This document shows positions 7,060 to 28,525 of a stretch of DNA of 29,038 nucleotides, in pieces. A program made the translations under genes and the position numbers. The notes under the pieces were generated by a model that worked only from the letters and a program-made list of their open reading frames with translations, had not been told where the DNA came from and ran no database searches. Source of the stretch: Deferrisomatales bacterium (GTDB lineage Bacteria > Desulfobacterota > Deferrisomatia > Deferrisomatales > JACRMM01); NCBI GenBank assembly GCA_033551855.1, contig JAWSUI010000046.1, positions 1 to 29,038 of the forward strand. Reading direction: 5' to 3'. The stretch's first letter is position 1; every line of letters begins with the position of its first letter.

Positions 7060-7252
7060 GGCACAAAGATGCCATGAGTGGCGAGTTGCTGCAATACAAT
7101 CGCCCGCCTTGATGGACCTGAAAGAACTCCTTCTTGGGGGATCGGACCACCATGTATAGCCGTACATATGTCAAGATAGCACTATATGTTGTGGCTCTCT
7201 TGCCCGCAGGGGAATTCTTTCCGTCACGTCCCCTTTCTCGGACCGCGAAGGG

Positions 7253-7568
7253 TCAGGTGCCGGATTGTCTCCTTTCCATGACATAACCTTTGGGGGTTTC
7301 GAACAACAGGTGTGCGTACTCTCGGTGGACGACACTCGAGGAGGGGATGTAATTCTTCCAAAATCTCCAGTCGTCTCATGATCTCTTCCGCAGTGTCCGG
7401 GCCGGGCGGCCTCCCCTCGCAGTACACCGCGGCCATGATCTCGTTCAGGCCGGTCACCGTCACCTTCGCCCCGTCTTGGAATCTCAATGTACGCCGGCTA
7501 ACTGCCGGCTGCCCGTCCTCGGCTCAAGTCGCTAAGCCGATGGATTGCAGCAGCGACGGGATGTTCAT
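7253..7568 (-). pseudogene. Putative selenoprotein gene (Sec15) with a 1-nt frameshift near 7358-7363; last gene of the ars operon
   Basis: ATG at 7568 overlaps the arsA stop (ATGA) and has a GGAGG RBS. It reads MNIPSLLQSIGLAT-TGA(7526-7524)-AEDGQPAVSRRTLRFQDGAKVTVTGLNEIMAAVY...EEIMRRLEI in frame. A one-base shift then gives KNYIPSSSVVHREYAHLLFETPKGYVMERRQSGT-stop (7253). Confidence 0.6.
7493..7526 (-). promoter_or_regulatory. Candidate bacterial SECIS element
   Basis: UGA, 14 nt, then a GCCGGC-AGUUA-GCCGGC stem-loop (7509-7493) with GU at the 5' side of the apical loop. Confidence 0.55.
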
Positions 7569-9316: not shown

Positions 9317-9320
9317 TTTC

Positions 9321-10022
9321 TCAGGCTCCGCAGCAGCCGGTGGACGGGTCGCACGCCGGCGGGGCGACGGCCAGATCGGGCTTGGCCGAGGCCGGCCCCG
9401 CCGGGGCGCAGCAAGACGGCGCGCCTCCCGCGGCCGGCTCCTCGCCGCAGCAGGCCTTCGGCGCCTCTTCCTCGGCAGCGCCCGCGACCTCCTCCTGCAG
9501 GTATCGCCCCGCGAGCTCCAGCATCGCCTTGGCTGGCGCGTTCTTCACCATCTGTGCCGTTCGCACCGCCCGAGCCATGTCCTCCCGGCTCACGCCCAGC
9601 TTGAGCGCCCGGCCGTAGTGTTGCTTGAAGCACGGCTCGCAGTTGGCGGCGATGGCCGCCCCGATGGCCACGAGCTCCTGCACGGCGCCGGAATAGAGCC
9701 CGGACTCTTCCCCCGAGCTGCCCAGGATCAGGCGGTCCAACTGCTCGCAGGTGGGGTAGGAGCAACGGCTCACGATCTTCCCGTTCACCAGGACCAGGGG
9801 CAGGCACTTCGGGCCTTCTACGGACAAAGCGTGCTTCACGACGTCGTTCCCGGCGAACGCCCCGGGATCCTGGGCGAGGTTGTAGCGCTCGACGCGCACT
9901 CCCTGCTCTTGCAGGCGCTCGAGGTCGGCGGCGAAGCGGGCCAGCACCGGGTCCACGCCGGGGCCGCACACGCCGGTGGAGCAGCACATGGGGGGGTCGA
10001 AGATCTGTAACGTCAGGGACAT
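9321..10022 (-). CDS. arsD: Arsenite metallochaperone ArsD fused to a CMD/AhpD-like CxxC domain and a Cys-Cys-rich tail
   Basis: IFDPPMCCSTGVCGPGVDPVL..RYNLAQDP is ArsD. It is followed by ELVAIGAAIAANCEPCFKQH..ALKLGVSREDM (CMD/AhpD) and a tail with ACC, SCC, AC, GCC. ATG at 10022 with GGAGAGGAG RBS. Confidence 0.9.
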   Translation of the reverse strand: MSLTLQIFDPPMCCSTGVCGPGVDPVLARFAADLERLQEQGVRVERYNLAQDPGAFAGNDVVKHALSVEGPKCLPLVLVNGKIVSRCSYPTCEQLDRLILGSSGEESGLYSGAVQELVAIGAAIAANCEPCFKQHYGRALKLGVSREDMARAVRTAQMVKNAPAKAMLELAGRYLQEEVAGAAEEEAPKACCGEEPAAGGAPSCCAPAGPASAKPDLAVAPPACDPSTGCCGA

Positions 10023-10060
10023 CGAAGATTCTCCTCTCCGTGTTGGGTATCGTCGCTGGT

Positions 10061-11413
10061 TCAGGACAGACAGTGGAAGACTCCCTTGCACCACAGGCAG
10101 TCGCCGCAGGGCTCCGTGTTGAGGAAGCAGTCCTGCTCGAACTCCTCGGCGGTCACGTAATCGCAGCACTTGGCCAGGTTGCAGTCCGAGCAGAAGGGGT
10201 AGTCGTAGCGGGTGACTCCCTCGCGGAAGGCGCGGTAGGCGGGGTCGTTCCAGATGTCGAGGATGCCGCGCTGCGCCACCTTCCCGAACACCCGGGGGCG
10301 CACGAACTTCTCGCGGCCGTTGATCAGGCACCGGTAGCCGTGCCAGAGAAAATAGCAGGGGTGGACGTTCCCGTCCCAGGAGACGAAGGCGCCGCCCTCC
10401 TCGACGAAGGCGCAGCGCCGGTCGCCGTGGGGGACGACCTCGGGCAGCCGGAGCTCGATCCCCTCCTCCCGGGCCGCTGCCTCGGCCGCGAGGAAGACCT
10501 CTCGGACACGGGAGATCCACGCCTCGTCCCTCTCGAGGATCTTCTGGACGTTGACGAAGACGTCGCGGGCGTGGGCCTCGGCCTTCATCGACTCGACGAA
10601 GGCGACGATCCGCTCCTCCTCCGCGGTCTTCGTGTACTTCCACAGAACCTCGAAGTAGCGCCCCAGGTCCACCCCCTCGGCCCGGGCCCGCTTCCTCCAG
10701 GGCTCGAAGAACCCGACGGCCACGTCGGTGTTGGGGTCGTAGGCGGCCTGGGAAACGAGGCGCTCGTCGTAGGGCATCACCTGGGTGACCAAGGCGAAGG
10801 TGGCACCCCGCCGGGCCGCCCAGCGTACGACCTCGGGAAGCTCGCCCACGTTGTCGCGCATGGCGACGAACTCGATGCCCTTGGCGATCCGGCGGCCGGT
10901 GGCGGCCTCGGCTCGGGCCAAAGCGGAGAGGCCCCGGTCTACCGCGCCCACCTCGCCCCCCTCCCGCAGGCGTCGGAAGGTGGCAGGAGAGACCGCGTCC
11001 AGGGAGAGGCAGATGCGGTCCAGGCCGGCCCGGGCCAATGACAGGGCCCGGGCGTCGTCGAGGAGGAGCCCATTGGACTGGAACCCGATCCAAGACGATT
11101 CCGGCATCGCCCGCCGGGCCAGGCGAATGAACCCCTCGAGCCCCGGGTGCAGGAGCGGCTCGCCGATGCCCGAGAGCACCAACGTCTGCAGGTGGGGAAA
11201 CGCAGGACCCAGGGCGTCGAAGGTGGACAGCGAGAGGTCTCCCTCCGCGATCCCGTTGCCCGCCGTCTGCTTCACGCACATGGTGCAGCGCAGGTTGCAC
11301 CGGGTCGTCGTCTCGACGAAGAGCTTCGATGGGTGGGATTGCTGCGCCGGCAACCGACGGGTGTCTGGGCAACGGGGTTCTTCCTGCGTCGCTGCGCTCC
11401 CTTCGAGGTACAT
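10061..11413 (-). CDS. Radical SAM/SPASM protein resembling the deltaproteobacterial putative metalloenzyme maturase family
   Basis: HPSKLFVETTTRCNLRCTMC (CxxxCxxC), GIGEPLLHP, and a Cys-rich SPASM C-terminus (CAFV..PCYF..FCSDC..CCD..DC..PCGDCLWCKGVFHCLS). Start at 11413 has better RBS spacing than 11422. Confidence 0.88.
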   Translation of the reverse strand: MYLEGSAATQEEPRCPDTRRLPAQQSHPSKLFVETTTRCNLRCTMCVKQTAGNGIAEGDLSLSTFDALGPAFPHLQTLVLSGIGEPLLHPGLEGFIRLARRAMPESSWIGFQSNGLLLDDARALSLARAGLDRICLSLDAVSPATFRRLREGGEVGAVDRGLSALARAEAATGRRIAKGIEFVAMRDNVGELPEVVRWAARRGATFALVTQVMPYDERLVSQAAYDPNTDVAVGFFEPWRKRARAEGVDLGRYFEVLWKYTKTAEEERIVAFVESMKAEAHARDVFVNVQKILERDEAWISRVREVFLAAEAAAREEGIELRLPEVVPHGDRRCAFVEEGGAFVSWDGNVHPCYFLWHGYRCLINGREKFVRPRVFGKVAQRGILDIWNDPAYRAFREGVTRYDYPFCSDCNLAKCCDYVTAEEFEQDCFLNTEPCGDCLWCKGVFHCLS

Positions 11414-11441
11414 GCGAGGCATTCTCCGAAAGGCGGCGGCC

Positions 11442-12305
11442 TCAGCCGTGGACCAGGAGCACCGGCGCCCTGGCGCGGCGAACCAGGCTGTAGGCCGTGC
11501 TCCCCAGGAGCATCCCGGGCAGCTGCCCCCAGCCTCGGGTCGCCATGAGAACGAGGCCCACGCCCTCCCGTGCGGCGTGCTCGAGGAGGACCTTGCGCGG
11601 GTCGCCCTGGGTGATCACCGATTCCACTCGGTCGCATCCGGAACCCCTGAGCACCTCGGTCATGTCCGCGAGCCGCCGGGCGTCGTCCTCCGTGTAGCTT
11701 GCCGCGATCTCCGGGGACAGATGCTCCCACGCCACTCGCTGATTCACGTGGACGAGGGAGATCTGTCCAATCCGGCCGGCCAGCCCCTGGAGCGCCTCGA
11801 GGGCTTTCCGAGAGGCCTCGGAGAAATCGGTGGGGAAGAGCACGTGGTCGAGGGCCCTGGAGAAGCGGAGCGGGCAGTACCGGCCTCCGTCCTGCCCCAT
11901 CAGGCTCATCCGCAGCACCAGCACCGGGCAGGGGGAGTACTCCACGATCCGCGCGGCGGTGCCCCCCAGGAGCGAGCTCAGCACGGCGCCCCGGCCGTGG
12001 GAGGCGGTGACGACGAGATCCGCCCCGGCTTGCCGAGCGGCCTCCACCACCTCGTACCAGGCGACCCCCTTGGCAAGCCGAATCTCCACTTCGTAGCCCT
12101 GCCCGCGAAGGGTTTCTGCTTGCATTTCGAGGTCGGGGAGGTGGTCCGCCGCGAGGGCGTCGTCGAGGCCCACCGAGTACCGCGTCTCGGCCACGTGGGC
12201 CAGCGTGACCCGCTGGGTGCCGAGACCCTGGAGTTGAGCGGTACACTCCAAGAGGGGGCCGGAGCCGGCGGAGAGGTCGGTGGCGATCAAGGCGTGGGGG
12301 AACAT
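11442..12305 (-). CDS. Tandem universal stress protein (two USP domains)
   Basis: ALIATDLS..LVVTASHGRG..LLGGTA, then VLFPTDFSEAS..LMATRGWG..LLGSTAYSLVRRARAPVLLV. Confidence 0.9.
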   Translation of the reverse strand: MFPHALIATDLSAGSGPLLECTAQLQGLGTQRVTLAHVAETRYSVGLDDALAADHLPDLEMQAETLRGQGYEVEIRLAKGVAWYEVVEAARQAGADLVVTASHGRGAVLSSLLGGTAARIVEYSPCPVLVLRMSLMGQDGGRYCPLRFSRALDHVLFPTDFSEASRKALEALQGLAGRIGQISLVHVNQRVAWEHLSPEIAASYTEDDARRLADMTEVLRGSGCDRVESVITQGDPRKVLLEHAAREGVGLVLMATRGWGQLPGMLLGSTAYSLVRRARAPVLLVHG

Positions 12306-12358
12306 GGGGTGCTCCTCGCATCGGGTGCTGTGGGGAACGGCATTCGCCGCCGAGCAGG

Positions 12359-12384
12359 GTAGGTCGGGGCAAGCCCCGACCTAC
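12359..12384. repeat. Perfect 12-bp inverted repeat, GTAG-type REP-like palindrome
   Basis: GTAGGTCGGGGC-AA-GCCCCGACCTAC in the acr3-usp intergenic region. Confidence 0.65.
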
Positions 12385-12414
12385 GCAAGGTCCATCCGCA
12401 GGCGAGACCTCATG

Positions 12415-13482
12415 CTATGCCCGCACGGGCAGGCCTTCCGGTCCGAAGTGCTTGAGCTTCAGCCTCAAGGCCACGTTCACCAGGCTGATGAGCACCGGCA
12501 CCTCCACCAGGGGGCCGATGACCGCCGCGAAGGCCTCTCCCGAGTGGAGCCCGAAGACGGCCACGGCGACGGCGATGGCCAGCTCGAAATTGTTGGAGGC
12601 GGCCGTGAAGGAGAGCGTGACCGTGTGACCGTAGGGGGCGCCGACCTTCCGGCTCATCCAGAAGGACACGAAGAACATGGCGAAGAAGTAGATCGTCAGC
12701 GGGATCGCGATCCGGACCACGTCGAAGGGGAGCTGGATGATCATCTCGCCCTTCAGGCTGAACATCACGACGATGGTGAAGAGCAGCGCGATGAGCGTGA
12801 TGGGGCTGATGCGGGGGATGAACTCCTTCTCGTACCACTCCCGGCCCTTGGTCTTGAGACCGATGACCCGGGAGAGGATGCCGGCGATGAAGGGGATGCC
12901 GAGGTAGATGAAGACGCTCTCGGCGATCTCGGCCATGGTGATGTCCACCACGATCGCGTCCCCCAGGCCCAGGACCGACGGGAGCCACGTGATGAAGAAC
13001 CAGGCGTACACGGAGAAGAAGAGCACCTGGAAGACCGAGTTGAACGCCACCAGGCCCGCGCAGTATTCCGTGTTGCCCTTGGCCAGGTCGTTCCAGACGA
13101 TCACCATGGCGATGCAGCGGGCGAGCCCGATGAGGATGAGGCCGACCATGTACTCCGGGTAGCCCCGAAGGAAGATGATCGCGAGCAGGAACATGAGGAC
13201 CGGCCCCACGACCCAGTTCTGGAGGAGTGAGAGCGCGAGCACCTTCTTGTTCTGAAAGACCCGGGGGAGCTCCTCGTACTTCACCTTGGCCAGGGGCGGG
13301 TACATCATGAGGATGAGGCCGATGGCGATGGGGATGTTGGTGGTCCCCACCGTGAAGAACTCGATGACCTCGGTCACGCCCGGGAAGAGCCAGCCGCCCC
13401 CTACCCCCACGAACATGGCCAGGAAGATCCACAGGGTCAGGTACCGGTCGAGGAACGAGAGGTTCTTGGCGACTCCGGACAT
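12415..13482 (-). CDS. acr3: ACR3-family arsenite efflux transporter
   Basis: [34 protein letters not shown] (catalytic Cys), [21 protein letters not shown] at 13482 with GGAGGAG RBS. Confidence 0.96.
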
Positions 13483-13484
13483 GC

Positions 13485-13901
13485 TCACTCCTCCTTCAAG
13501 AAAGACGCGACCCGGTTGCCGATCTCGTCTCGCACCCGGCGAAACACTGCCAGGACCTCGTCCTGGGTTCCTCGGGCCTCCGCCGGGTCGTCGAAGGGCC
13601 AGTGCTGTCTCGCCTTCACCTTCCCGAGGAAGACGGGGCAGGACTCCCGCGCCCCGCCGCACACGGTGACGAGGAGATCCAGGTCGTCCCCCAGCACTTC
13701 GTCCACGGACTTCGAGCGTTGGTCCGAGATGTCCACCCCGGCCTCGGCCATGACCCGGACGGCCAGGGGGTTGACCCCCTGGGGCCGGGTCCCGGCGGAC
13801 AGGGCGTCGTACCGGTAACCCCCCAGGTGCCGGAGCCAGCCCTCGGCCATCTGGCTGCGGCAGGAATTGCCGGTGCAGAGGAATAACACTCGCTTCTTCA
13901 T
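13485..13901 (-). CDS. arsC: Arsenate reductase, thioredoxin-coupled LMW-PTP type
   Basis: [18 protein letters not shown]-loop, resolving cysteines [18 protein letters not shown]. Confidence 0.93.
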
Positions 13902-13923
13902 GGTCTTCTTCTTCCCGGATGCC

Positions 13924-14274
13924 TCAGGCGACCGAACGGCCGCAGAGCTCTTCCCGACACACGCCGCGGGCCCTCGCTCGCAGCTCCCCTGCCTCAGCGA
14001 AAGACTCGGCCGCCGAACGAAGGTGGGCCAGGAGCCCCTGGACCAGCGGAGGCGGGAGCGGGTTCTGTCGGTAGTTCTTCCAGGGCCCAACCCGCTCCGA
14101 CACCACGAACCCCGAGTCCTCGAGCACCTGGAGGTGCCGGGACACCGTGGACTGGGCCAGGCCCAGGATTGCCTGGATTTCGCACACGCAGAGCTCCCGT
14201 TCCTCGAGCATCCACAGGATGCGCAGGCGAGACTCGTCAGAGAGGGCTTTGAAGCGGGCGAGCACCGAGTCCAT
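13924..14274 (-). CDS. arsR: ArsR/SmtB-family As(III)-responsive repressor
   Basis: FKALSDESRLRIL..ELCVCEI..QSTVSRHL, plus C-terminal CREELC. Heads the ars operon. Confidence 0.92.
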   Translation of the reverse strand: MDSVLARFKALSDESRLRILWMLEERELCVCEIQAILGLAQSTVSRHLQVLEDSGFVVSERVGPWKNYRQNPLPPPLVQGLLAHLRSAAESFAEAGELRARARGVCREELCGRSVA

Positions 14275-14285
14275 GTTCCCCTCAT

Positions 14286-14334
14286 ATCGTTCCGAGGCGA
14301 TCCAGACCCTACCCGGATGACCCCCGCCTGTCAA
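14286..14334 (-). promoter_or_regulatory. ars operon sigma70 promoter and candidate ArsR operator
   Basis: Minus strand TTGACA (14334-14329), 17-nt spacer, TAGGGT (14311-14306). ATCG-N8-CGAT inverted repeat at 14286-14301 lies at or after the start site. Confidence 0.6.
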
Positions 14335-14423
14335 GCCAGTTTCCTAGGCTGATCGGCGCATGCGTCCAACCCTGCGCTCCGAGCCATCCTCGAGTGCCAT
14401 GCATTTCGGAAAAATTATCCCCC

Positions 14424-14452
14424 TTGACGCCGGTCACTCATGCCACTACCAT
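14424..14452 (+). promoter_or_regulatory. Sigma70-like promoter of the second ArsR operon
   Basis: TTGACG (14424-14429), 17-nt spacer, TACCAT (14447-14452). Confidence 0.6.
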
Positions 14453-14480
14453 TCTGTTATGTTTCTTGCGGAGGAGGACG

Positions 14481-14789
14481 ATGAGTCGAACACACTCGCG
14501 CCGAGCCGAGATCCTCAAGGCCCTGGGTCACCCTTCCCGCATCGCGATCCTGGAGATCCTGCGACGGGGAGAGGAGTGCGTGTGCCGGATCTGCCCCCAG
14601 CTGGACGGCACCCAGCCCAACACCTCGAAACACTTGGCGGTTCTCAAGAAGGCCGGGATCCTCGGCTCCCGCCAGGAGGGCACCATGACCTTCTACTGGG
14701 TGGTGGACACCCGCGTGTACGAGATCCTCGAGCTCGCCGACGAGATGATCCGCCGCGAGGGCCGGGGGAGGCTGCGGGAGGTGGGTTGA
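14481..14789 (+). CDS. Second ArsR/SmtB-family regulator
   Basis: AEILKALGHPSRIAILEIL..EECVCRIC..NTSKHLAVLKKAGIL. ATG at 14481 with GAGGAGG RBS. Confidence 0.9.
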   Translation: MSRTHSRRAEILKALGHPSRIAILEILRRGEECVCRICPQLDGTQPNTSKHLAVLKKAGILGSRQEGTMTFYWVVDTRVYEILELADEMIRREGRGRLREVG

Positions 14790-14805
14790 GCGCCTTTCGT
14801 TTGCT

Positions 14806-14824
14806 CAAGAATATAACTTTCTTG
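14806..14824. promoter_or_regulatory. AT-rich inverted repeat, candidate operator
   Basis: CAAGAA-TATAACT-TTCTTG between arsR2 and the first thioredoxin-like gene. Confidence 0.4.
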
Positions 14825-14840
14825 TTTTGAAGCGGGGCGC

Positions 14841-15236
14841 ATGACAATGGCCGAGCGGATTTCACGATGGACGAGGTGTGGTCTGGCCGTAGCGGCGGCG
14901 CTCGCCCTCTCCTCGACAGCCCTCGCGGGGGCGGCGCCCACCCTCGTGTTCCTCACCAAGAGCGATGAGTGCGAGTGTGTGCTGAACGTCAGCGTGGCGG
15001 GTGAGCAGGAGGTGGTGAACTTCATCGCGGACAACCCTTACGGCTTCCAATACGAGAGAATCGACCTGGCGGAGGACCCGGCTGCCGGGCGGGCATACCG
15101 CGTGTTCGCGGTCCCCGTCGTCGTGCTCCAGGACGAGGAAGGCCGGACCGTGGCCCGTTTCGATTCCTTCTTCACCGAGGCGGATTTCTACAAGGCTTGG
15201 GGGGCGTACGAGAAGAAGCGGGGAGGGCAACAGTGA
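14841..15236 (+). CDS. Exported thioredoxin-fold protein with CxC motif
   Basis: Signal peptide (..ALSSTALAGAA), LVFLTKSDECEC, ERIDLAED..YRVFAVPVVVLQDEEG (cis-Pro loop). Start at 14841 or 14847. Confidence 0.7.
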   Translation: MTMAERISRWTRCGLAVAAALALSSTALAGAAPTLVFLTKSDECECVLNVSVAGEQEVVNFIADNPYGFQYERIDLAEDPAAGRAYRVFAVPVVVLQDEEGRTVARFDSFFTEADFYKAWGAYEKKRGGQQ

Positions 15237-15691
15237 AGAAGCTCCTTGTCCCGGCAGCGTTTGTCATCCTACTGGGGGCAGTGGGTTTCGGCGTGACCCA
15301 GTACGGCGCCCGCTGGGCCCAGGGACGGGGCCTCCCGGCCTCCGACGCCGCCCTGCCCGCCCCTGCCGCGGCGCCTCTGGCCCCGGGAGAGAGGGTCGCC
15401 TTCCTGGATCTCGGCAGCGCGGGGTGCGTGCCGTGCGAGGCGATGAAGCCGGTCCTGGAGGCTGTGACCCGGGAGTACGGGGATCTCGTGGAGGTCGTCT
15501 ATCACGACGTCCGAAAGGATCCCGCCCCCGCCCGAGAGCACCGGATCCGCCTGATTCCCACCCAGGTGTTCCTGCTCCCGGACGGGGCCGAGTTCTTCCG
15601 CCACGAGGGGTACCTCCCCCTGGAGCGGGTCGAAGAAGTCCTTTACCGCATGGGGGTCCGCCGCCCGGGCAGCCAGGAGGGGCCGTCGTGA
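15233..15691 (+). CDS. Membrane-anchored/exported thioredoxin-family protein
   Basis: GTG at 15233 (GTGA overlap), N-terminal hydrophobic helix, FLDLGSAGCVPCEAM, IRLIPTQVF..RHEGY. Confidence 0.88.
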   Translation: MKKLLVPAAFVILLGAVGFGVTQYGARWAQGRGLPASDAALPAPAAAPLAPGERVAFLDLGSAGCVPCEAMKPVLEAVTREYGDLVEVVYHDVRKDPAPAREHRIRLIPTQVFLLPDGAEFFRHEGYLPLERVEEVLYRMGVRRPGSQEGPS

Positions 15692-15852
15692 GCCACGTCG
15701 TCACCCTGACCGACGAAGACGTCGCCCGGCTCCGGGTCATCTTGATGGACCGGGACGGGGGCGCCGCCCTCGAGTTTCTGAAGGAGCGGGTCGCCAAGCC
15801 CCTGGACCTCGCCGGCCGGAAGGCTCTCGACGTGAGCCGGGGCCGGCCGTGA
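15688..15852 (+). CDS. Small hypothetical protein (54 aa), paralog of the 19189..19380 candidate selenoprotein
   Basis: GTG overlaps the upstream stop and has a GGAGG RBS. Sequence MSHVVTLTDEDVARLRVILMDRDGGAALEFLKERVAKPLDLAGRKALDVSRGRP. Confidence 0.7.
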   Translation: MSHVVTLTDEDVARLRVILMDRDGGAALEFLKERVAKPLDLAGRKALDVSRGRP

Positions 15853-15904
15853 CCGTGACGCGCCGCCGGCGCGCGCTTCTCCGACGGCAGAACAGGACGA
15901 AGCC

Positions 15905-17095
15905 GTGAAGGAGCGAGAAAAGCTCCTCTTGATCGTGGGGGTGTTCCTGGCGGCGTACTACGTGCCCGTGGAGCACGCGAGGGTGCAGGGGGCGCTCCTG
16001 GAGTCCTTCCGGATGCTCCAGGACTACGCCCGGGCCCACGTGCTCACCTGCCTGGTGCCGGCGTTCTTCATCGCCGGGGCGATCGCGGTGTTCGTGAGCC
16101 AGGGGGCGGTACTCCGGTACCTGGGCGCAGGGGCGCAGCGAGTGCTCGCCTACTCCGTGGCCTCGGTCTCGGGCGGGGTGCTGGCGGTGTGCTCGTGCAC
16201 GGTGCTCCCCCTCTTCGCCGGAATCTACAACCGCGGGGCGGGTATCGGGCCGGCAGCCGCCTTTCTCTACTCGGGGCCGGCGATCAACGTGCTGGCGATC
16301 GTGATGACCGCCAAGGTCCTGGGTCCCCATCTCGGGGTCGCCCGGGCCGTGGGGGCCGTCGTCTTTGCCGTCGTGGTGGGGCTCCTCATGGCGGTCACGT
16401 TCCGCCGCTCAGAGGCCGAGCGCCAGGCCGGGTTCGCGGCGCTCCCCGAGGAGGAGCCGGCACGGCCCCTCTGGAAGAATGCCCTCTACATGCTCGCCAT
16501 GGTGGCGGTGCTCGTCTTCGGGGCCTGGGGTGAGCCGCGTCAGCCTGTGGGCTGGGCCATGGCGGTCTTCGACCTCAAGTGGTATCTGTCGGGTGCCGGC
16601 CTCGTCGCGACTCTCGCCATGGTCTGGGTGTGGTTCTCCCGGGACGAGCGCGTGGAGTGGGTGGAGGCCACCTGGGGGTTCGCGAAGCAGATCCTGCCGC
16701 TGCTCCTGGCCGGGGTCCTCATTGCGGGCTTCCTGCTCGGCATGCCCGGAAGCGATGCCGGGCTCATCCCCAGCGAGTGGGTGGCGAAGCTCGTGGGGGG
16801 GAACTCCCTGGGCGCCAATCTCTTCGCGTCGGTGGCCGGGGCGCTCATGTACTTCGCAACGCTCACCGAGGTGCCGATCCTCCAGGGCCTGCTGGGCAGC
16901 GGGATGGGCAGCGGCCCCGCTCTGGCGCTGCTGCTGGCCGGCCCGGCGCTCTCCCTGCCCAATATGCTGGTCATCCAGAGCGTCCTGGGAACCCGGAAGA
17001 CTGCGGTGTTCATCGGGTACGTAGTGCTCCTCTCCACGGCGGCCGGGATGATTTTCGGCAACCTCTTCCCCCACCTGACCCTGCCGGGAGTCTGA
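15905..17095 (+). CDS. DUF318/ArsP-family permease
   Basis: Polytopic membrane protein with HVLTCLVPAFFIAG, LAVCSCTVLP, FLYSGPAIN, MYFATLTEVPI, LLAGPALSLP. Confidence 0.88.
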   Translation: MKEREKLLLIVGVFLAAYYVPVEHARVQGALLESFRMLQDYARAHVLTCLVPAFFIAGAIAVFVSQGAVLRYLGAGAQRVLAYSVASVSGGVLAVCSCTVLPLFAGIYNRGAGIGPAAAFLYSGPAINVLAIVMTAKVLGPHLGVARAVGAVVFAVVVGLLMAVTFRRSEAERQAGFAALPEEEPARPLWKNALYMLAMVAVLVFGAWGEPRQPVGWAMAVFDLKWYLSGAGLVATLAMVWVWFSRDERVEWVEATWGFAKQILPLLLAGVLIAGFLLGMPGSDAGLIPSEWVAKLVGGNSLGANLFASVAGALMYFATLTEVPILQGLLGSGMGSGPALALLLAGPALSLPNMLVIQSVLGTRKTAVFIGYVVLLSTAAGMIFGNLFPHLTLPGV

Positions 17096-17096
17096 C

Positions 17097-17801
17097 ATGG
17101 CCGGTCTCGAAGCGTTCCTCGCCAACGCCCAGCTCACCATCCAGACCAACCCCTGGCTCGCCTTCGCGGCGGTCTTCGCCGGGGGGGCGCTGACTGCCTC
17201 GAACCCCTGCGTGCTCGCCATGATTCCCCTGGTCATCGGGTTCGTGGGGGGGTACGACGGGATCACCGGGTGGCGCAGGTCCTTCGGCTTCTCGCTGGTC
17301 TTCGTGTTCGGCCTCGCGGTGAGCTTCACGGCCATGGGGGTGATTGCGGTGACCGTGGGCCGTCTCTTCGGCGACGTGGGCGGCTTCTGGCCGTGGGTCA
17401 TCGCCGCCGTGTGTCTGGCCATGGCGGCCCACCTCTGGGACCTCTGGACCTTTTCCCTGCCCGAGGGCCTGGCCCGCTACAAGCCCAAACACGCCGGGGC
17501 TCTCGGGGCCTTCACCCTGGGGCTTCTCTTCGGTCTGGTCTCGGCGCCGTGTGCCGCCCCGATCCTGGTCGTGGTGCTGGCCTACATCGCGTCCCAGGGG
17601 AGCCTGCCCTACGGCCTGGCGCTTTTGTGGACCTACGCCGTGGGCCACTGCGTCCTGATCGTGGTCGCCGGGACCAGCATGGGGGTCGCCAAGCACCTGA
17701 TCCAGTCACGGGGCTTCGGGAGGGCAAACCTGGTCTTCAAGCGCCTCGCGGGGGCGCTCATCGGCCTGGTGGGCGTGTTCATCCTGTGGAAGGGTGTGTG
17801 A
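17097..17801 (+). CDS. ccdA: CcdA/DsbD-type transmembrane thiol-disulfide transporter
   Basis: About six TM helices with the catalytic pair SNPCVLAMIP and SAPCAAP. Confidence 0.85.
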   Translation: MAGLEAFLANAQLTIQTNPWLAFAAVFAGGALTASNPCVLAMIPLVIGFVGGYDGITGWRRSFGFSLVFVFGLAVSFTAMGVIAVTVGRLFGDVGGFWPWVIAAVCLAMAAHLWDLWTFSLPEGLARYKPKHAGALGAFTLGLLFGLVSAPCAAPILVVVLAYIASQGSLPYGLALLWTYAVGHCVLIVVAGTSMGVAKHLIQSRGFGRANLVFKRLAGALIGLVGVFILWKGV

Positions 17802-17835
17802 GGCGGGAGGAGATCCAACCGTGGTGGAGGACATC

Positions 17836-18219
17836 ATGAAGAGGCTCGTGATCGAGTGGCGGCACCTGGAAAGCGAGGGCCGCACCTGTGACCGCTGCTC
17901 GGACACGGGGGAGGCGGTGCGGAAGGCATTTGCCGATCTGGAGAAAGACCTCGCCCCGGAGGGCGTCCGCGTGTCCCTGGTGGAGACGGTGCTCGGGGAG
18001 GACCGCGTCCGGGAGTCGAACGAGATCCGATTCAACGGGGTGCTGCTGGAGGACCTGCTCCCCGCCGCGCGCGCGGGAGAGAATGCTTGCTGCTCCTGCA
18101 CGGAGCTCCTGGCCGTGGAGACCTCGTGCCGAACCGTGGAGATCGGGGAGCAGAGCCTCGAAGCAATCCCCGCCGAGCTGATTCGCCAGGCGGCCCGCAG
18201 GGCTGCGGGCCTCGAGTGA
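17836..18219 (+). CDS. DUF2703-like Cys-rich protein
   Basis: MKRLVIEWRHLESEGRTCDRCSDTG..ESNEIRFNGVLLEDLL..CCSC..CRT..EAIPAELIRQA. ATG at 17836 with GGAGG RBS. Confidence 0.75.
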   Translation: MKRLVIEWRHLESEGRTCDRCSDTGEAVRKAFADLEKDLAPEGVRVSLVETVLGEDRVRESNEIRFNGVLLEDLLPAARAGENACCSCTELLAVETSCRTVEIGEQSLEAIPAELIRQAARRAAGLE

Positions 18220-18281
18220 CGGGCTGCGACGTCAAATGATCTTTTGACAGGCGTTAACCACACCAAGACAGGAGATGCCCC

Positions 18282-18512
18282 GTGAAAATCGAAGTGCTCG
18301 GAACCGGCTGCCCGAAGTGCCAGAAGCTCTACGAGGCGGCCAAGGAAGCAGTGTCCAGGACCGGCGCCGACGCCCAGGTGAGCAAGGTGGAGGACCTCGG
18401 CGAGATCATGAAGCGGGGGATCATGGTCACCCCGGCCCTCGCGGTGGACGGGCAGATCAAGTCCGCGGGCAAGGTGCTCAAAGCCGATGACATCGCGAAA
18501 TTCTTGGGGTGA
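18282..18512 (+). CDS. Small redox-active disulfide protein (MTH895/thioredoxin_3 family)
   Basis: KIEVLGTGCPKCQKL..IMVTPALAVDG..GKV. Confidence 0.92.
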   Translation: MKIEVLGTGCPKCQKLYEAAKEAVSRTGADAQVSKVEDLGEIMKRGIMVTPALAVDGQIKSAGKVLKADDIAKFLG

Positions 18513-18521
18513 GCGACGTTC

Positions 18522-18893
18522 TCACCTGGCGATGAAGCGCACCCCGGGCAGCCCTTCGAGTTCGGAGTCAGAGGTGGCGAGCTCGGCCCGGTAACGCACC
18601 GCGGTCGCGTACACGATGGCGTCGGCCATGGCGAGGCGCTTCTTGGTCGAGAGGTCTGCGGCTTCGAGAGCCAGAGGAGCGTCCAGCGGTACGATACGGG
18701 CTTGCTGCATGAACCCGGAGCAGCGCAGGGCCGCCTCCTCCCCCGCGGTCCTCGCGAGGAGCTTGTATACCTCGTAGAGTACCACGGTGGGCACGAGCAA
18801 CTCCTCCGGATGAGCAAGAAGAGTCGAGTACGTGCCGGCGGCGGGGCCGTCGGTGAAGACCTCGAGCCAGCCGCACGAGTCTACGAGGATCAC
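18522..18893 (-). CDS. vapC: Type II TA toxin, VapC/PIN domain
   Basis: ILVDSCGWLE..VPTVVLYEV..LAMADAIVYATA..LATSD acidic PIN motif. GTGA overlap with the antitoxin. Confidence 0.9.
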   Translation of the reverse strand: MILVDSCGWLEVFTDGPAAGTYSTLLAHPEELLVPTVVLYEVYKLLARTAGEEAALRCSGFMQQARIVPLDAPLALEAADLSTKKRLAMADAIVYATAVRYRAELATSDSELEGLPGVRFIAR

Positions 18894-19099
18894 GGGAGCC
18901 GCTCGGTCTTCTCACGGAAGCCGCGGACGTCGATTCCCCTCGCGATGCCGCGCAGATCCTCGAGGGAGGGCACGGGCACCAGATAGACGATGCCCCCTTT
19001 CTCGAAGACCTGGAGCTTCTGCCTGGGACGCAGCCCGGCGGCCTCACGGACCGGTCGAGGAATGACTACCTGGTACTTGGAGGATACCGTGGTTTCCAT
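18890..19099 (-). CDS. vapB: AbrB/MazE/SpoVT-family antitoxin
   Basis: METTVSSKYQVVIPRPVREAAGLRP. ATG at 19099 with GGAG RBS. Confidence 0.88.
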   Translation of the reverse strand: METTVSSKYQVVIPRPVREAAGLRPRQKLQVFEKGGIVYLVPVPSLEDLRGIARGIDVRGFREKTERLP

Positions 19100-19142
19100 G
19101 CGGGTCTCCATCATGTTGCACTGATTTGGTATCGTTCACGAA

Positions 19143-19188: not shown

Positions 19189-19380
19189 ATGAAGAAGGAA
19201 GTGACCGTCCGACTGGACACCGAGGAAGTGATTTCGCTGGAGCGCTGCCTCTCGGACCGGAATGCCGAGGAGGCCTTCCAGCTGTTGAAGCAACTCGCCG
19301 AGAAGGTCCGCCACGCACAGTTCACGGCGTGACGCCCCTACTTCGAGATGCGCGGCGCGCATCCGATTCCGCCGGGGTGA
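19189..19380 (+). CDS. Small putative selenoprotein (63 aa, Sec48), absent from the ORF track
   Basis: ATG at 19189 with AAGGGAG RBS. Sequence MKKEVTVRLDTEEVISLERCLSDRNAEEAFQLLKQLAEKVRHAQFTA-TGA(19330-19332)-RPYFEMRGAHPIPPG-stop. A SECIS-like hairpin follows the TGA, and read-through ends 16 nt before nifS. Confidence 0.7.
19330..19379 (+). promoter_or_regulatory. Candidate bacterial SECIS element
   Basis: UGA, 14 nt, GAUGCGC-GGC-GCGCAUC (19347-19363), extendable by UCG/CGA. Lower stem CGCCCC (19333-19338) pairs with GGGGUG (19374-19379). Confidence 0.6.
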
Positions 19381-19396: not shown

Positions 19397-20524
19397 GTGA
19401 TCTACCTCGACCACAACGCCACCACGCGGCCGGACCCGGCCGTGGTGGATGCCCTCTCCTGGGCCACGGAGCACGCGTGGGGCAACCCGTCCACGCTGTA
19501 CCGCGCCGGGCGTGAGGCCAAGGGCGTGCTCGACGCCGCGCGGGGGAAGGTGGCCCGGTTGATCGGTGCCAGGGACCCGGCCCAGGTGGTCTTCACCTCG
19601 GGCGGGACCGAGGCCGACGCGCTGGCCCTCTTCGGGGTGCTCCGCCGGCCGGGACAGGGAGGGCGCCATCTCGTCACCTCGCTGGCCGAGCACAAAGCGG
19701 TACTTCGGACCGGGGTCCGTTTGGAGGCCGAGGGGTTTCCGGTTACGTTCCTGCCCGTGGACGGCCTAGGCCGAGTCGACCCGGAGATGGTTGCCCGAGC
19801 CCTGCGGCCGGACACGGCCCTGGTATCGTTCCTGCTCGCGAACAACGAGGTGGGCACCGTGAACCTTGTGGGAGAGATCGCGTCCGTCTGCCGAGAGGAG
19901 GGGGTGCCCGTTCATACCGACGCCGTGCAGGCCTGCGGAAAGATCCCCGTGGACGTGGAGGAACTGGGCGTCGACCTCGTGAGCCTCTCGGGCCACAAGT
20001 TCCACGGGCCGCGAGGGATCGGGGCCCTCTGGGTGCGGCCGGGAACGGTGCTCCAGCCCCTCCTGGTCGGAGGAACCCAGGAGCGCGGGCTCCGGGCCGG
20101 CACCGAGCCCGTTGCTTTGGCCCACGCCCTGGGCGTGGCGGCCGAGCTCGCAAGGTCTCGCCTCGAAACGGATGGGGCACGAATCCGGGCGCTGCGGGAC
20201 CGCCTCTGGGAGGGGCTTCGCGAGGCGGTCCCGGGCGTCCGGGCCCACGGCGACCGGGATCGGGGCCTCCCGAACACCCTCAACGTCTCGATCCCGGGGC
20301 GGGAGGCCGAGGCCCTCGTGCTGGCCCTCGACGAGGCGGGAATCGCCGTGGGCACCGGATCCGCCTGCAGCACCGGCGACACCCGCCCCTCCCACGTGCT
20401 CCTGGCCATGGGTGTGCCGCCGGCCGAAGCCCGCGCGTCGATCCGATTCAGCCTGGGGAGGGCGAATACCGACGCGGAGGTGGGCGCCGCCGTGGAGGCG
20501 CTGGGGCGGATCGCCCTGGCGTAG
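19397..20524 (+). CDS. Group I cysteine desulfurase (NifS/IscS family; possible selenocysteine lyase activity)
   Basis: IYLDHNATT, FTSGGTEAD, HTDAVQ, SGHKFHGP (PLP lysine), GTGSACS (catalytic Cys). Confidence 0.93.
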   Translation: MIYLDHNATTRPDPAVVDALSWATEHAWGNPSTLYRAGREAKGVLDAARGKVARLIGARDPAQVVFTSGGTEADALALFGVLRRPGQGGRHLVTSLAEHKAVLRTGVRLEAEGFPVTFLPVDGLGRVDPEMVARALRPDTALVSFLLANNEVGTVNLVGEIASVCREEGVPVHTDAVQACGKIPVDVEELGVDLVSLSGHKFHGPRGIGALWVRPGTVLQPLLVGGTQERGLRAGTEPVALAHALGVAAELARSRLETDGARIRALRDRLWEGLREAVPGVRAHGDRDRGLPNTLNVSIPGREAEALVLALDEAGIAVGTGSACSTGDTRPSHVLLAMGVPPAEARASIRFSLGRANTDAEVGAAVEALGRIALA

Positions 20525-22794: not shown

Positions 22795-24762
22795 ATGATT
22801 CGAGCCATTTCCTGCGCCGTGTTCCTCGGCCTGCTCCTGTCCGCCGCCGTCGCAGCGCCCGGGGCCGTCGCGGCCGCCCCTGAACCCGTGCGTGTCCATT
22901 TCTTCTGGGCGTTCGGTTGCCCCTACTGCGAGCAGGAAAAGGTCTTTCTGGACGACCTGCTCCAGCGGCACACCTCCGCCGTGGAGATCGTCGGCTACGA
23001 AATCTCCCGGGATCCGGACAACCAGCGGCTGCTGCAGGACATGGGCGCGGCCCACGGCTTCACCCCGACCACGATACCGGTCACCTTCATCGGCGGCGCC
23101 TACTGGCAGGGGTACCGCCCGTCGTTGGCCGGGGAGATGGAGGCGCACGTCCTGCGCTGCCTCGGGGGCGAGTGCCCGGACGTCGGGGGAGAGGTGCTCG
23201 CCCGCCGCGCCCCGGGGGGAGGAGCGCTCGCGTCGCCGGGGGACCCGGGCGGGGAAGGGGCCCCTCCCGTTGCCGGGGGAGCCCGGGGCAACGCGACCAT
23301 CGACGTGCCCTTTTGGGGTACGTTCGACCTCGGTGCCGGCTCGCTGGTCTACGCCACGGCCGTGATCGCCTTCGTGGACGGGTTCAACCCCTGCTCCCTG
23401 TGGGTGCTCTCGATGCTGCTGGCCATCGTGATCCACACGAGCTCCCGAAGGAAGATCTTCATCGTGGGGGGGACCTTCCTCCTGGTCACCGCGACCGTCT
23501 ACGGGGCCTTCGTCGCGGGGATGTTCAACGTGCTCGCGTACCTCATGTACATCGGTTGGGTGACGTACCTCGTGGCGGCGATCGCCATCGCGTTCGCCGC
23601 GATCAACATCAAGGACTACTTCTTCTTCCGGCAGGGCGTCTCCCTGACGATCTCCGACAAGCACAAGCCGGGGATCTTCAAGCAGATGCGGGGGACGGTC
23701 GCGGGGGACAAGTCCGTCCTGGCCATGATCGGGACCACCGCCGTCATGGCAGCGGGCATCACCGTCATCGAGCTTCCGTGCACGGCCGGCTTCCCCCTGG
23801 TCTGGAGCGGCCTCGTGGCTTCCCATCAGGTGGGGCTCGTGTCGTTCGCCGCGCTCCTCGTGCTCTACATCGCGGTCTACCTCTCGGTGGAGATCGTGAT
23901 CTTCGCGGCGGCGCTCACCACCCTGAAGATGGGCAAGCTCCAGGAAGCGCAAGGGCGCGTGCTCAAGCTCGTCGGCGGCACCGTCATGCTGTTCCTGGGG
24001 ATTGCGCTCGTCGCCGACAAGGAGATCCTGTCGAGCCTGTCGGGGACTCTGTTGGTCTTCGGGCTCGCAGCCGGCACCTCGCTGCTCGTCCTGGTGCTGC
24101 ACCGCCTCGTGCTGCCCCGCTGGGGCGTCTTCCTGGGAAGCGAGAAGCCGGCGGCGGACGTCGGGCCGAAGCCCGGGGAAGGGCGACGGGGATTCGCGCT
24201 GCTGCGCGCACCCAAGGCGGTGGCCCTCGCCCTGGCGGCCCTGGTACTGCTGGGCCTGGCCTACTTCCCGGCCCTCCTGGGAGCCCGCCCGGACCCCGAG
24301 GCGAAACCCCTTCACGAGGGGACGGCGGCGACCCGGGTGGGAAACCGCAGCCTGGAGACCGAGTTGACGCTGGTCTTCTCTCCGGAAGACCCCGCCGGCA
24401 ACGAAGTGCTGGCGGCGCTGCTGGCCCACCCCGGCTGCACCGTGCACCTGAACCCCACCGGGCCGGTGGCGTCCCCGGCGTCCGCCGCGTGGGCGGGGCT
24501 CCCCAGGAGGGACTACGATCCCCTGGTCAACGCCTCCGTCGCGCGCCTCTTCGGTTTCGGCAACCTGCCCATCCTCATCGTGACCACCGGGGACGAGCGG
24601 CAGATCCTCGGCGAGCCCTCCAGGATCGTCTCGACGATCAGCAGCTTGTGCAGGGCCCCCGAAACCCCCCTGCCTTCGCTGGCGCCCACCTGGGGGTCCG
24701 GCAGCCTCCTGCTGCCCCCGGAGCCCGGTTGCGGGATCGCGGCGGAGTCGGATTGCGACTGA
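22795..24762 (+). CDS. Exported glutaredoxin/thioredoxin domain fused to a CcdA-like membrane domain and a C-terminal degenerate thioredoxin-like domain
   Basis: Signal peptide from MIRAISCAV, FFWAFGCPYC, IPVTFIGG, membrane region with DGFNPCSLWVL and IELPCTAGFP, then an extra TM and a C-terminal domain. The true start is likely 22795 within ORF 21181..24762. Confidence 0.8.
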   Translation: MIRAISCAVFLGLLLSAAVAAPGAVAAAPEPVRVHFFWAFGCPYCEQEKVFLDDLLQRHTSAVEIVGYEISRDPDNQRLLQDMGAAHGFTPTTIPVTFIGGAYWQGYRPSLAGEMEAHVLRCLGGECPDVGGEVLARRAPGGGALASPGDPGGEGAPPVAGGARGNATIDVPFWGTFDLGAGSLVYATAVIAFVDGFNPCSLWVLSMLLAIVIHTSSRRKIFIVGGTFLLVTATVYGAFVAGMFNVLAYLMYIGWVTYLVAAIAIAFAAINIKDYFFFRQGVSLTISDKHKPGIFKQMRGTVAGDKSVLAMIGTTAVMAAGITVIELPCTAGFPLVWSGLVASHQVGLVSFAALLVLYIAVYLSVEIVIFAAALTTLKMGKLQEAQGRVLKLVGGTVMLFLGIALVADKEILSSLSGTLLVFGLAAGTSLLVLVLHRLVLPRWGVFLGSEKPAADVGPKPGEGRRGFALLRAPKAVALALAALVLLGLAYFPALLGARPDPEAKPLHEGTAATRVGNRSLETELTLVFSPEDPAGNEVLAALLAHPGCTVHLNPTGPVASPASAAWAGLPRRDYDPLVNASVARLFGFGNLPILIVTTGDERQILGEPSRIVSTISSLCRAPETPLPSLAPTWGSGSLLLPPEPGCGIAAESDCD

Positions 24763-24843
24763 CGGGGATGAAACCGCCGCTCCACCGGCGGCGGCCCGGA
24801 CTGCGCAAGTCGTGTGCTTCGCCGAAGCACCCGGTCAGCGGCC

Positions 24844-25833
24844 TCAGGTGGCGCCCGGGGCGTGGGGCGCCGCGGCGGTATCCGGGCTCGCCGACGGCGA
24901 GCCGCCGGGACCCCTCATCCTCTCGAACATGAGCCGGGTCTTGTAGGCTACCACGCTCATCGAGATGGCTGCCGCCGCATCCATCTCGTCGTCGCTTGCG
25001 CCGTTCTCCCTCGCGACCGCGAGGCTCCAGTCGGTTCAGAGCTCGCAGCCGCCGGCGAGGGAAGCGGCCAGGAACAGAAGCCCCTTGGTCTTCCCGTCGA
25101 GCACCGCGCTCTGGTGGGTGGCGTCGAAGAACTCCTGGAATTTGTCCATGGGCCGGACCATGCGTTCCTCCTCTGAAGATCGGGAAACCACGTTCCCGCT
25201 GCGCCGCAGGGCCACCAGGTAGAGGTCTCGCGGCAGGCTCCCCTCCGCCGCGCGATCGATGGCCAGGACCTCGTAGCCCCGCGCGAGTCGGCGGATCCTC
25301 TCCTCGCTGAAGAAGTGGACGACGAACCCGCCCACCTCGTAGAGATCCTCCCGGAGGTGGGTTCCCGCCCGGTAGTGCTTGTCGAAACGGCTCCGCACCG
25401 AGTACAGGTTGAGTCCCCCCGGACGAAGGACGCGGCGGATCTCGCCGAGGAGGAAGGCAACCTCCTCCGTGCCGAGCTCCATGCAGAGAAGCATGTGGGA
25501 AAAGCAGCCGTCGAAGGAGCCGTCCGGGAAGGGAAGGGGCTGCCGAAGGTCCTGGACGTGCGCGGACACGAGTTCGGAAACCCCGCCCCGCTTCGCCGCC
25601 TCCGTGACCTCCTCGACCGCCCTGGGCGAGTAGTCGAGCGCGGTGACCCGCATCCCGGCGTTCGCGAAAAGAAGGGTGTCCCGCCCCTGGCCGCAGCCGA
25701 GCTCGAGAACGTCCCGAACCCCGGCGTCCCGGAAGCGCTCCAGGGCGAGCTTGGCGAAGTCGCTCGGGCCCTCCCCGAAGAAACTCGGGCTCGCCGTGTA
25801 GACCTCGGTCCAGTGGGTCCGCTGGTCTGCCAT
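24844..25833 (-). CDS. Class I SAM-dependent methyltransferase fused to a CMD/AhpD-like selenoprotein domain (CxxU, Sec266; 329 aa with read-through)
   Basis: Methyltransferase motifs VLELGCGQGRD, ALDYS, LPFPDGSFD, RVLRPGG. These are followed by AVLDGKTKGLLFLAASLAGGCEL-TGA(25038-25036)-TDWSLAVARENGASDDEMDAAAAISMSV.., which completes the CMD fold. Next stop at 24846-24844. Confidence 0.85.
25009..25038 (-). promoter_or_regulatory. Bacterial SECIS element
   Basis: UGA, exactly 11 nt (ACCGACUGGAG), then CCUCGC-GGUC-GCGAGG. Same spacing and GGUC loop as the E. coli fdhF SECIS. Confidence 0.8.
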
Positions 25834-25857
25834 GGGTTCCTCCGGCGGGTCAAGGAA

Positions 25858-25983
25858 TCACAGGAGGGTGCGCCTGATCTCTTCGAATTCTTCCTTCGAG
25901 ATCTAGCCCTTGGCGTAGCGCCGCTTGGCGATGTCCAGGGGCGATCTGGCGTGTGCCGTTCCGCCGCCCGGCGAGCAGGGCAT
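25858..25983 (-). pseudogene. SHOCT-domain gene remnant with nonsense codon
   Basis: SPLDIAKRRYAKG-TAG(25905-25903)-ISKEEFEEIRRTLL-stop. The TAG sits at the conserved Glu of RYAKGEI, and no N-terminal TM segment is present in frame. Confidence 0.7.
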
Positions 25984-26270
25984 CCCGGCCCGTCCACGGT
26001 CTCACCCCGGGGAGTGGTTTCTCGTGGGCAGCACGGTCCTGCGGACACGAACGAATGTACCGGTGAGCGGACGGCAGGTCAAAGCCGGGTCCCGGTGTGG
26101 GGGCGGCGGCCTCGTGGAACGGTTTTCCTTCCGCAGGCCCCTTCCTTGACGGGTGCCCGTTCCCGGGCTGTACTGGGCCCGGTATGGTCTCTTCTGCCCG
26201 TTGAGCGACCCCGGGCGAGAGGCGGGAAACAGAGTGGGGACCGTGCCCCGCCGGACGAAAGGAGCACGCC

Positions 26271-27954: not shown

Positions 27955-28269
27955 TCAGGACCGGAAGAGGGCGGTGTCGAGGAGGCGTGCTCCGTGCACC
28001 ACGCGCAGGATGACCACCTTGGGGCCGGCGACGCGAAAGACGGTGCGGTAGGAGCCGTGGGTCAGGTGACGGTAGGGGGTTCCGAGCACTTCGTTCTCGG
28101 GGATGCGCGGGCAGCGCTCCGGGTGCCGTTCGAGGGAAGCGATCTGTTCCTCCAGCGCGAGAACGAAGGCCGTGGCCTGCTCGGGACTGTCCTGGGCTAT
28201 GTAGTCCCAGATCTCGGCGATGTCGGCCTCGGCCGTGGGCGTGATGTGGACCTCAAAGGTCGCGGGCAC
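27955..28269 (-). CDS. Type II TA toxin, RelE/ParE family
   Basis: VHITPTAEADIAEIWDYIAQDSPEQA..YRHL..YRTVFRV..VVILRVVHGAR. Confidence 0.9.
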   Translation of the reverse strand: MPATFEVHITPTAEADIAEIWDYIAQDSPEQATAFVLALEEQIASLERHPERCPRIPENEVLGTPYRHLTHGSYRTVFRVAGPKVVILRVVHGARLLDTALFRS

Positions 28270-28525
28270 GCCGGAACTCGCTTAGGAACTCGCGGGCGGG
28301 CCGGCTGCGTCCCTCTGCCGCTTCGGCCTCGGCGGGGGCCAACAACCGCACGAGGTTCGCCGCCTGCAGATGCTTCTGGTAGACGGCCGCATCCAGGATG
28401 ACGGAGTCGGGCCGGCCGTTCACCGTGAGCACAACGGGGCGCCCGGTGGCGTGGACGTGGTCGAGGATTTCGCGGGTATGGCGCTTGAGGTCGGTCACAG
28501 AGCGGATGTCTTCGGTAACGTTCAT
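28253..28525 (-). CDS. Type II TA antitoxin, Phd/YefM family
   Basis: IRSVTDLKRHTREILDHVHATGRPVVLTVNGRP. GGGAG RBS; overlaps the toxin start. Confidence 0.9.
   Translation of the reverse strand: MNVTEDIRSVTDLKRHTREILDHVHATGRPVVLTVNGRPDSVILDAAVYQKHLQAANLVRLLAPAEAEAAEGRSRPAREFLSEFRRARDL

Follow-up and report, generated by a model that had tools for sequence, protein, structure and literature searches.

MduS is listed as a methyltransferase domain-containing selenoprotein with a CxxU motif and two selenocysteine (Sec) residues in a 2026 review, which attributes it to Haft & Tolstoy 2025 (PMC13188914). That review was the only source in our literature search that mentions MduS; the available portion of the main text of PMC13326102 does not name it, and no function for MduS was found in the texts searched, the defining paper excepted. 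In ArsM, as described in PMC6138428, one cysteine pair binds arsenic and another re-reduces, with thioredoxin as the proposed reductant, and CmArsM has four conserved arsenic-binding or redox cysteines. For AhpD-like peroxidases, PMC3141380 describes an invariant relay His, located four residues past the second Cys.

Here we analysed a window of 29,038 nucleotides (the whole stretch of DNA under study). A 332-aa protein encoded in it scored 510.8 bits against NCBIfam NF045649.1 (2X_seleno_MduS; cut-off 380), covering positions 5-338 of the 338-position profile, and it contains C263-x-x-U266 together with U330. The gene is therefore almost certainly a member of the MduS double-selenoprotein family. 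Because the protein matches NF045649 and the review lists the family, existing catalogues already cover the protein, its fusion architecture and its two Sec residues, and the novelty implied by an earlier, sequence-only reading of this DNA is not supported. Only 5 of 401 genomes in a sample of the phylum, including the present one, passed the NF045649 cut-off. Neither an internal start, nor forms lacking the AhpD domain, nor a fusion to DUF2284 was found in the MduS literature searched, the defining paper and its supplements excepted; the Haft & Tolstoy paper or its supplements may already describe the internal start.

The gene is carried on the minus strand, which the sequence-only reading had left unstated (Table 1). 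Translation from 25833 to 24844 gives the methyltransferase and then GGCEL-TGA-TDWSLAVARENGASDDEM. That reading had taken the TGA at the end of this frame as the stop codon of a 329-aa product, but the codon is instead read as a second Sec, followed by two more codons and the true stop at 24835-24837. The fusion itself is genuine: eight full-length copies, 61-68% identical, were found in 7 of 20 same-order genomes, and further copies at 48-56% identity occur in other deltaproteobacterial and metagenome contigs. The closest named relatives carry the label Deferrisomatales. The presence of a Shine-Dalgarno (SD) site and an ATG inside the gene had raised the suspicion of an apparent fusion created by a lost stop codon or an assembly error, and this was rejected on the finding of an uninterrupted frame at 34 loci that carry the CxxU domain. 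The 17 entries retrieved from databases all end at the first TGA; thus, both Sec residues escape standard gene calling. Copies of mduS that are broken or frameshifted were also seen at L068, L085, L108 and L114, for which real decay and assembly error are both possible.

Table 1. Positions in the window of the mduS gene and its associated features.
Feature	Position	Strand	Basis or detail
mduS-family gene	24835..25833	-	332 aa (U266, U330) and a stop codon; NF045649 match over residues 2-332
Shine-Dalgarno site, full-length gene	25839..25843	-	read from sequence
Class I SAM methyltransferase domain, ~residues 1-212	25198..25833	-	Pfam, alignment, fold
Internal Shine-Dalgarno site	25167..25173	-	anti-SD duplex -10.1
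Internal start codon M225, inferred 108-aa AhpD-only product 24835-25161	25159..25161	-	conserved in 25/25 (related homologs)
CMD/AhpD-like domain, residues 232-295, C263-E-L-U266	24949..25140	-	PF02627, helical confident model
TGA read as Sec266	25036..25038	-	C263-E-L-U266; read-through homologs
SECIS 1, 6-bp stem, GGUC loop, 11 nt after UGA	25009..25024	-	conservation, covariation, genome scan
Variable Pro/Ala/Gly linker, ~residues 306-329	24847..24918	-	predicted disordered
TGA read as Sec330, terminal T-U-G-R-stop	24844..24846	-	homolog frames, stop variation
SECIS 2, 7-bp hairpin, 3′ of stop codon	24814..24830	-	covariation
Upstream SHOCT-domain remnant, in-frame TAG 25903-25905	25858..25983	-	profile search, sequence
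Sigma70-like promoter match upstream of SHOCT remnant	26054..26082	-	consensus match only

The Sec predicted earlier at the CxxU motif is supported by homologous DNA, which continues past this point with a TGA in the same column, and Cys occupies the column in the domain relatives P0168, P0170 and P0171. The PF02627 match likewise runs across the TGA, scoring 35.3 bits (cut-off 23) for the read-through product vs 14.3 bits for the TGA-stopped piece. None of the three outcomes that would have refuted the sequence-only reading was seen. The GGUC-loop hairpin proposed in the sequence-only reading was recovered as SECIS 1. Its stability alone is unremarkable (z 0.06 to 0.74 by single-sequence folding), the minimum-energy fold departs from it in two of three windows, and Rfam gave no SECIS match at E up to 5. 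Across 25 homologs, 99.2% of its cells are paired and two of six pairs have changed on both sides. In the same genome, 56 of 2261 coding-like TGA ends (2.5%) are followed by a hairpin with this shape and spacing, and the best-scoring of these read as selenoprotein-like motifs, including one that we take to be formate dehydrogenase-like. The selA, tRNA-Sec (selC), selB and selD genes were all detected above their cut-offs in this genome. The genome-wide scan also gave further selenoprotein candidates with a SECIS-like hairpin and a coding-like continuation, four of them on contig C3 (TGA at 3108, 33915, 38427 and 42690, all minus strand) and others at C9:85966, C21:50429, C69:9415, C122:1237 and C126:1286.

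The sequence-only reading counted a single Sec, whereas there are two, U266 and U330. A U-X-X-stop motif was reportedly recognised as a second Sec site by Haft & Tolstoy in 2025. In all nine of the first copies examined, two codons and a further stop come after the TGA at 24844-24846. Across 33 loci the final stop after U-G-x is TGA in 25, TAA in 5 and TAG in 3, in a count whose tail pattern itself required U; unfiltered homolog translations, of which the second set lacks 20 of 80 loci, contain no intact fusion with a residue other than U at the 330 column. The two intervening codons vary synonymously. In SECIS 2, 94.2% of cells are paired and four of seven pairs have changed on both sides, at a place where coding constraint is absent; its covariation score was reached by none of 500 shuffles, although relatedness of the sequences inflates such counts. 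Given the constant TGA, the variable final stop and the covarying 3′ hairpin, the product as read from these alignments is a 332-aa protein with U266 and U330. A conserved SECIS hairpin thus lies just after each UGA, as expected of a bacterial selenoprotein. Two other candidates were rejected. A tandem stop at the second TGA, with the hairpin as a terminator, fails because no terminator-like site was found and the TGA is constant although the final stop varies, together with the synonymous variation of the intervening codons; a third TGA was discarded as a Sec codon because the frame is unconserved beyond it and no hairpin lies at the right distance. The structure model gives pLDDT values under 50 for residues 310-332 and leaves the tail unplaced.

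The AhpD-like domain has a CxxC-type motif in a CMD fold; it is confidently predicted to be helical, and its sequence matches in the PDB are 3bey, 1vke, 7y4r, 5dik and 2cwq. The relay His position is never His in the 25 homologs, being Ser, Cys, Gly or Thr in all of them, and the AhpD peroxidase model TIGR00778 scored 19.7 bits vs a cut-off of 27.8. The absence of the relay His argues against a plain peroxidase. Other members of this fold were also seen. The window does contain the ArsD fusion with an NCEPC motif mentioned in the sequence-only reading, at 9321-10022 on the minus strand; it combines ArsD, an AhpD/CMD domain (CxxC) and a Cys-rich tail, an all-Cys counterpart of the domain-plus-arm design. 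Elsewhere in the genome, a stand-alone CMD selenoprotein gene with CxHU and the relay His (G000:C38:10933-11178, minus strand; L035/L037) directly follows selA and precedes a MobA-like gene, and genes like it occur in several same-order genomes.

The tail can persist without this domain. Seven relatives (L069, L071, L105, L109, L111, L112 and L113) consist of the methyltransferase, a linker, T-U-G-x-stop and an intact hairpin, so an always-required AhpD domain is not supported. On a tree built without L096, L119, L109, L111 and L121, the five AhpD-less forms included require five changes and fall in four separate subclades within the fusion clade. Two of the seven are clean deletions, which may be recent or assembly events, and the other five have diverged linkers. 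Because the tail is kept when AhpD is lost, these alignments indicate that the Sec tail probably serves the methyltransferase (METHYLTRANSFERASE). The AhpD-less forms also offer a ready natural minimal construct for the terminal U-x-x-stop Sec as a putative substrate-carrying arm.

A conserved putative second initiation site lies at the junction of the two domains. The 34 loci that have the CxxU domain were reduced to 25 representatives sharing less than 90% identity. The M225 position is ATG in 17, GTG in 7 and TTG in 1, a start-type codon exactly 38 codons before the first Cys in 25 of 25, which are related homologs and not 25 independent events. All seven Val residues at this position are encoded by GTG, vs 174 of 489 other Val codons, and the sole Leu is encoded by TTG, vs 88 of 785 other Leu codons; on the tree, the GTG and TTG variants fall in separate clades. 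The mean anti-SD duplex energy was -9.4 for the 25 representatives vs -2.3 for 425 control in-frame start-type codons, and an energy of -6 or lower was found for every representative vs 14% of the controls. A Glu-rich linker alone can yield purine-rich DNA, and the internal signals could in principle be an EE-x-x-M linker by-product or the relic of a once-separate ahpD gene, with a single protein being made whose domains act independently, as stress functions under common regulation, and whose AhpD part is an antioxidant. Both halves do occur as stand-alone proteins, the selenium module is absent from most methyltransferase relatives (67 of 116 loci were classed as 'other', with 11 of the 116 unclassified), and AhpD has been lost repeatedly. 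We nevertheless consider this one-protein account improbable: the amino acids over the internal SD site vary (EE, KGG, EV, EG) while the purine motif and the start-type codon stay; a non-start codon is found in none of the 25 intact representatives, yet it is found after AhpD loss; the relay His expected of an AhpD peroxidase is missing throughout; and a tail without AhpD implies a link to the methyltransferase. The internal start has decayed in five of the seven AhpD-less relatives (L071, L105, L109, L111 and L113) and is left only in the clean deletions L069 and L112. In ArsM-AhpD fusions, an SD site and an ATG are present at the same junction in four of five, three of them from one genus, and one fusion has no internal SD. 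Short module-like proteins are present in databases as gene calls (P0159, P0161, P0163 and P0165). Taking up again the two-product reading, we judge it likely from these sequence comparisons that the gene produces the 332-aa fusion together with an AhpD-only double selenoprotein of 108 aa. Use of the internal start would let a single gene supply two selenoproteins and fix the subunit ratio of a redox enzyme, and MduS would have to be expressed and assayed differently.

The N-terminal half matched Pfam Methyltransf_11 over residues 43-141 with 73.2 bits. The sequence-only reading had seen no ArsM cysteine pattern in it, and this was confirmed: the ArsM model NF008823 scored 20.1 bits vs a cut-off of 263, and alignment to the ArsM-AhpD protein L214 placed no Cys or Sec at the matching positions, C110 and C117 sitting away from the ArsM cysteines. 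No match to NF008823 or NF043040 over the cut-off was found in the same genome. H113, C117 and M118, in the helix H113-M-L-L-C117-M118, show no variation among the 15 aligned family members; of 73 close stand-alone relatives, 72 retain H113 and 51 retain C117. Fold searches returned only generic class I methyltransferases, tied at Z 18-23, and no specific characterised relative was found by PDB sequence, fold or Atlas searches. Fusions to other domains occur among MduS-type methyltransferases, namely to DUF2284 (P0009, L118 and L125, with an in-frame TGA after GAG inside the DUF2284 domain of L118) and, in P0020, to a DF-family (seleno)protein-like domain.

Some of the better generic matches are to TehB models and structures, which is consistent with a chalcogen methyltransferase that would turn sulfide, selenide, telluride or small thiols into volatile products, with a persulfide or perselenide borne on Sec330 and recycled by CxxU. 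Several neighbours and fusions point the same way. L028 adjoins a Cys/Met PLP lyase and an OsmC-like gene, YeeE-type sulfur transport is found at L029 and TauE at L066, genes for rhodanese, DsrE, TusA and an aminotransferase-V protein adjoin stand-alone relatives, the relative P0013 is fused to rhodanese, and the window itself has a NifS-like gene at 19397-20524. Of the 15 full-length loci, 3 have a TsoA-like gene upstream, seen as partial ORFs that score below the cut-off, and a TsoA search of the same genome gave no match, with controls likewise giving none. The TehB score is 38.6 bits vs a cut-off of 219.5, the sulfur neighbours vary by locus, and the module set is common specifically to ArsM, so that we regard chalcogen methylation as unlikely.

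Neighbours were surveyed with ORFs from a crude caller, in a profile search of neighbours and fusions for which reference L035 was out of frame. Upstream of the 15 full-length loci (120 of 129 ORFs and 19 other proteins scanned), ArsR-family genes were found in four, SHOCT genes in five, and an MtrA gene with PterinBD in two. The last arrangement recurs just upstream of the broken copies L068 and L108 and of stand-alone L122, and would suit a Sec330 that acts as methyl acceptor and carrier, the arm being self-methylated and the methyl group passed to a corrinoid (MtrA-like) protein or a metal. In addition, among methyltransferase-only NCBIfam models the corrinoid-associated CpaM gives the best match (58.5 bits), the tail outlives AhpD loss, and a nucleoside phosphorylase-family gene, possibly for SAH/MTA turnover, is nearby in 3 of 15 loci. 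We hold this carrier role to be very unlikely, as the CpaM match falls below the cut-off of 180, MtrA-like genes make up a minority of the neighbours, with none in the window, and the selenoether Se-methyl-Sec is, by general chemistry, a poor methyl donor.

The SHOCT gene just upstream of mduS is interrupted by a TAG, which may mark a pseudogene or an assembly error; intact SHOCT genes precede the five other full-length loci mentioned above. An ars cluster at 7565-18512 encodes ArsA, ArsD-AhpD, an Acr3-like and an ArsC-like protein and an ArsP-type permease, along with two ArsR-like ORFs read by eye, and mduS lies 6 kb beyond it (the cluster being 6 to 17 kb away). The cluster further includes a gene for a radical SAM metalloenzyme maturase (TIGR04311, over the cut-off). 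Stand-alone relatives (87 of 126 neighbouring ORFs scanned, from the crude caller) adjoin an ArsC-like gene at two loci, an SBF/Acr3-family transporter gene at one, DUF2284 at three, and sulfur-transfer genes. Overall, the context loosely fits metal or chalcogen stress and names no substrate.

Several other features of the window were recorded. A small ORF at 19189-19380 (plus strand), directly upstream of the NifS-like gene, is probably a 63-aa selenoprotein gene. Its frame contains a TGA at 19330-19332, after which comes a 7-bp hairpin; the two relatives found among the 20 same-order genomes match it exactly at the TGA and over the ten residues that follow, and 8 of 10 database matches (fetched sequences or the window's own) end at the same point. 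This ORF gave no NCBIfam match at 1e-5 and no significant Pfam match, and a search for Cys homologs returned none; a distant look-alike may exist at 15688-15852. At 22795-24762 (plus strand), a gene converging on mduS encodes a membrane protein of 655 aa that has a glutaredoxin-like CPYC motif at its N terminus and only weak Pfam matches. Three toxin-antitoxin modules in and around the metal-resistance region (AbiE at 5618-7167, MazE/PIN at 18522-19114 and Phd/ParE at 27955-28525) suggest a mobile island.

MduS-type methyltransferases were seen in four architectures: stand-alone, with a Sec tail added, with both AhpD and the tail, and as a fusion to DUF2284 (P0009 scored 208.6 bits to NF041536). 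ArsM-type enzymes occur in the same four forms, including AhpD-less tailed L219, L222 and L224 and the DUF2284 fusion L216. The model for ArsM/AhpD selenoproteins, NF041537, matched the present protein with 107.8 bits (cut-off 510), best in the AhpD part; the AhpD module scored 78 bits and the methyltransferase alone 28.6 bits. As the same add-on modules are found on ArsM-type enzymes, a metalloid substrate is favoured, and the coupled reduction and methylation of a metalloid suggested earlier is a reasonable inference by analogy. The best explanation of the whole, which we hold tentatively and somewhat short of even confidence, is that MduS is a metalloid-detoxifying methyltransferase with ArsM-like logic on a different scaffold. 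The ars cluster in the window and the ArsR-family genes upstream of four full-length loci speak in its favour. Several results weigh against it: C117 is not kept in all close stand-alone relatives, the methyltransferase is far below the ArsM cut-off and has no cysteines at the ArsM positions, arsC, acr3 and arsA are absent among the nearest scanned ORFs in all 15 full-length loci, and the commonest context of the stand-alone relatives, a Zn-dehydrogenase and/or a dienelactone hydrolase gene, is non-metalloid.

In the mechanism that we propose, one mRNA would give the 332-aa fusion and the M225-started AhpD-only chain. AhpD domains would oligomerise, as in the hexameric or trimeric structures of the CMD/AhpD family, so the short chains could fill a ring bearing a few methyltransferase heads. 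Sec330 on its flexible arm would capture a soft electrophile, with As(III) or a methyl-As species as the first guess, and bring it to the SAM site, next to His113, Cys117 and Met118, where SAM would methylate it. C263/U266 would then re-reduce the arm or an oxidised intermediate, the job proposed for thioredoxin in ArsM; where AhpD is lost, a cellular reductant would stand in. That all parts hold together, with the short AhpD co-assembling with the full-length protein into a ring whose Sec arms feed a non-ArsM metalloid methyltransferase, and with the design having arisen independently on ArsM, is rather doubtful. If a non-ArsM metalloid methyltransferase does operate in anaerobes, it would add an As/Se methylation route that arsM surveys miss.

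Compared with known systems, the present gene is no different from MduS (NF045649) in membership. With TehB and the halide/thiol methyltransferases it shares a small class I fold (Z about 18-19), but identity is ~20%, scores are far below the cut-off, and those enzymes are without the selenium module. The AhpD/CMD family (M. tuberculosis AhpD, P. aeruginosa PA0269, TTHA0727 and the GSU3128 family NF041047) has the same helical CMD fold and CxxC-type motif, whereas here the second Cys is Sec and the relay His is absent. ArsM/AhpD selenoproteins (NF041537) share the homologous CxxU AhpD module, the flexible Sec-ended tail, the add-on module set and, in most of the fusions, the internal SD and ATG; their methyltransferase, which has Cys and Sec residues of its own, is of the ArsM type, whereas that of MduS belongs to another class I family.
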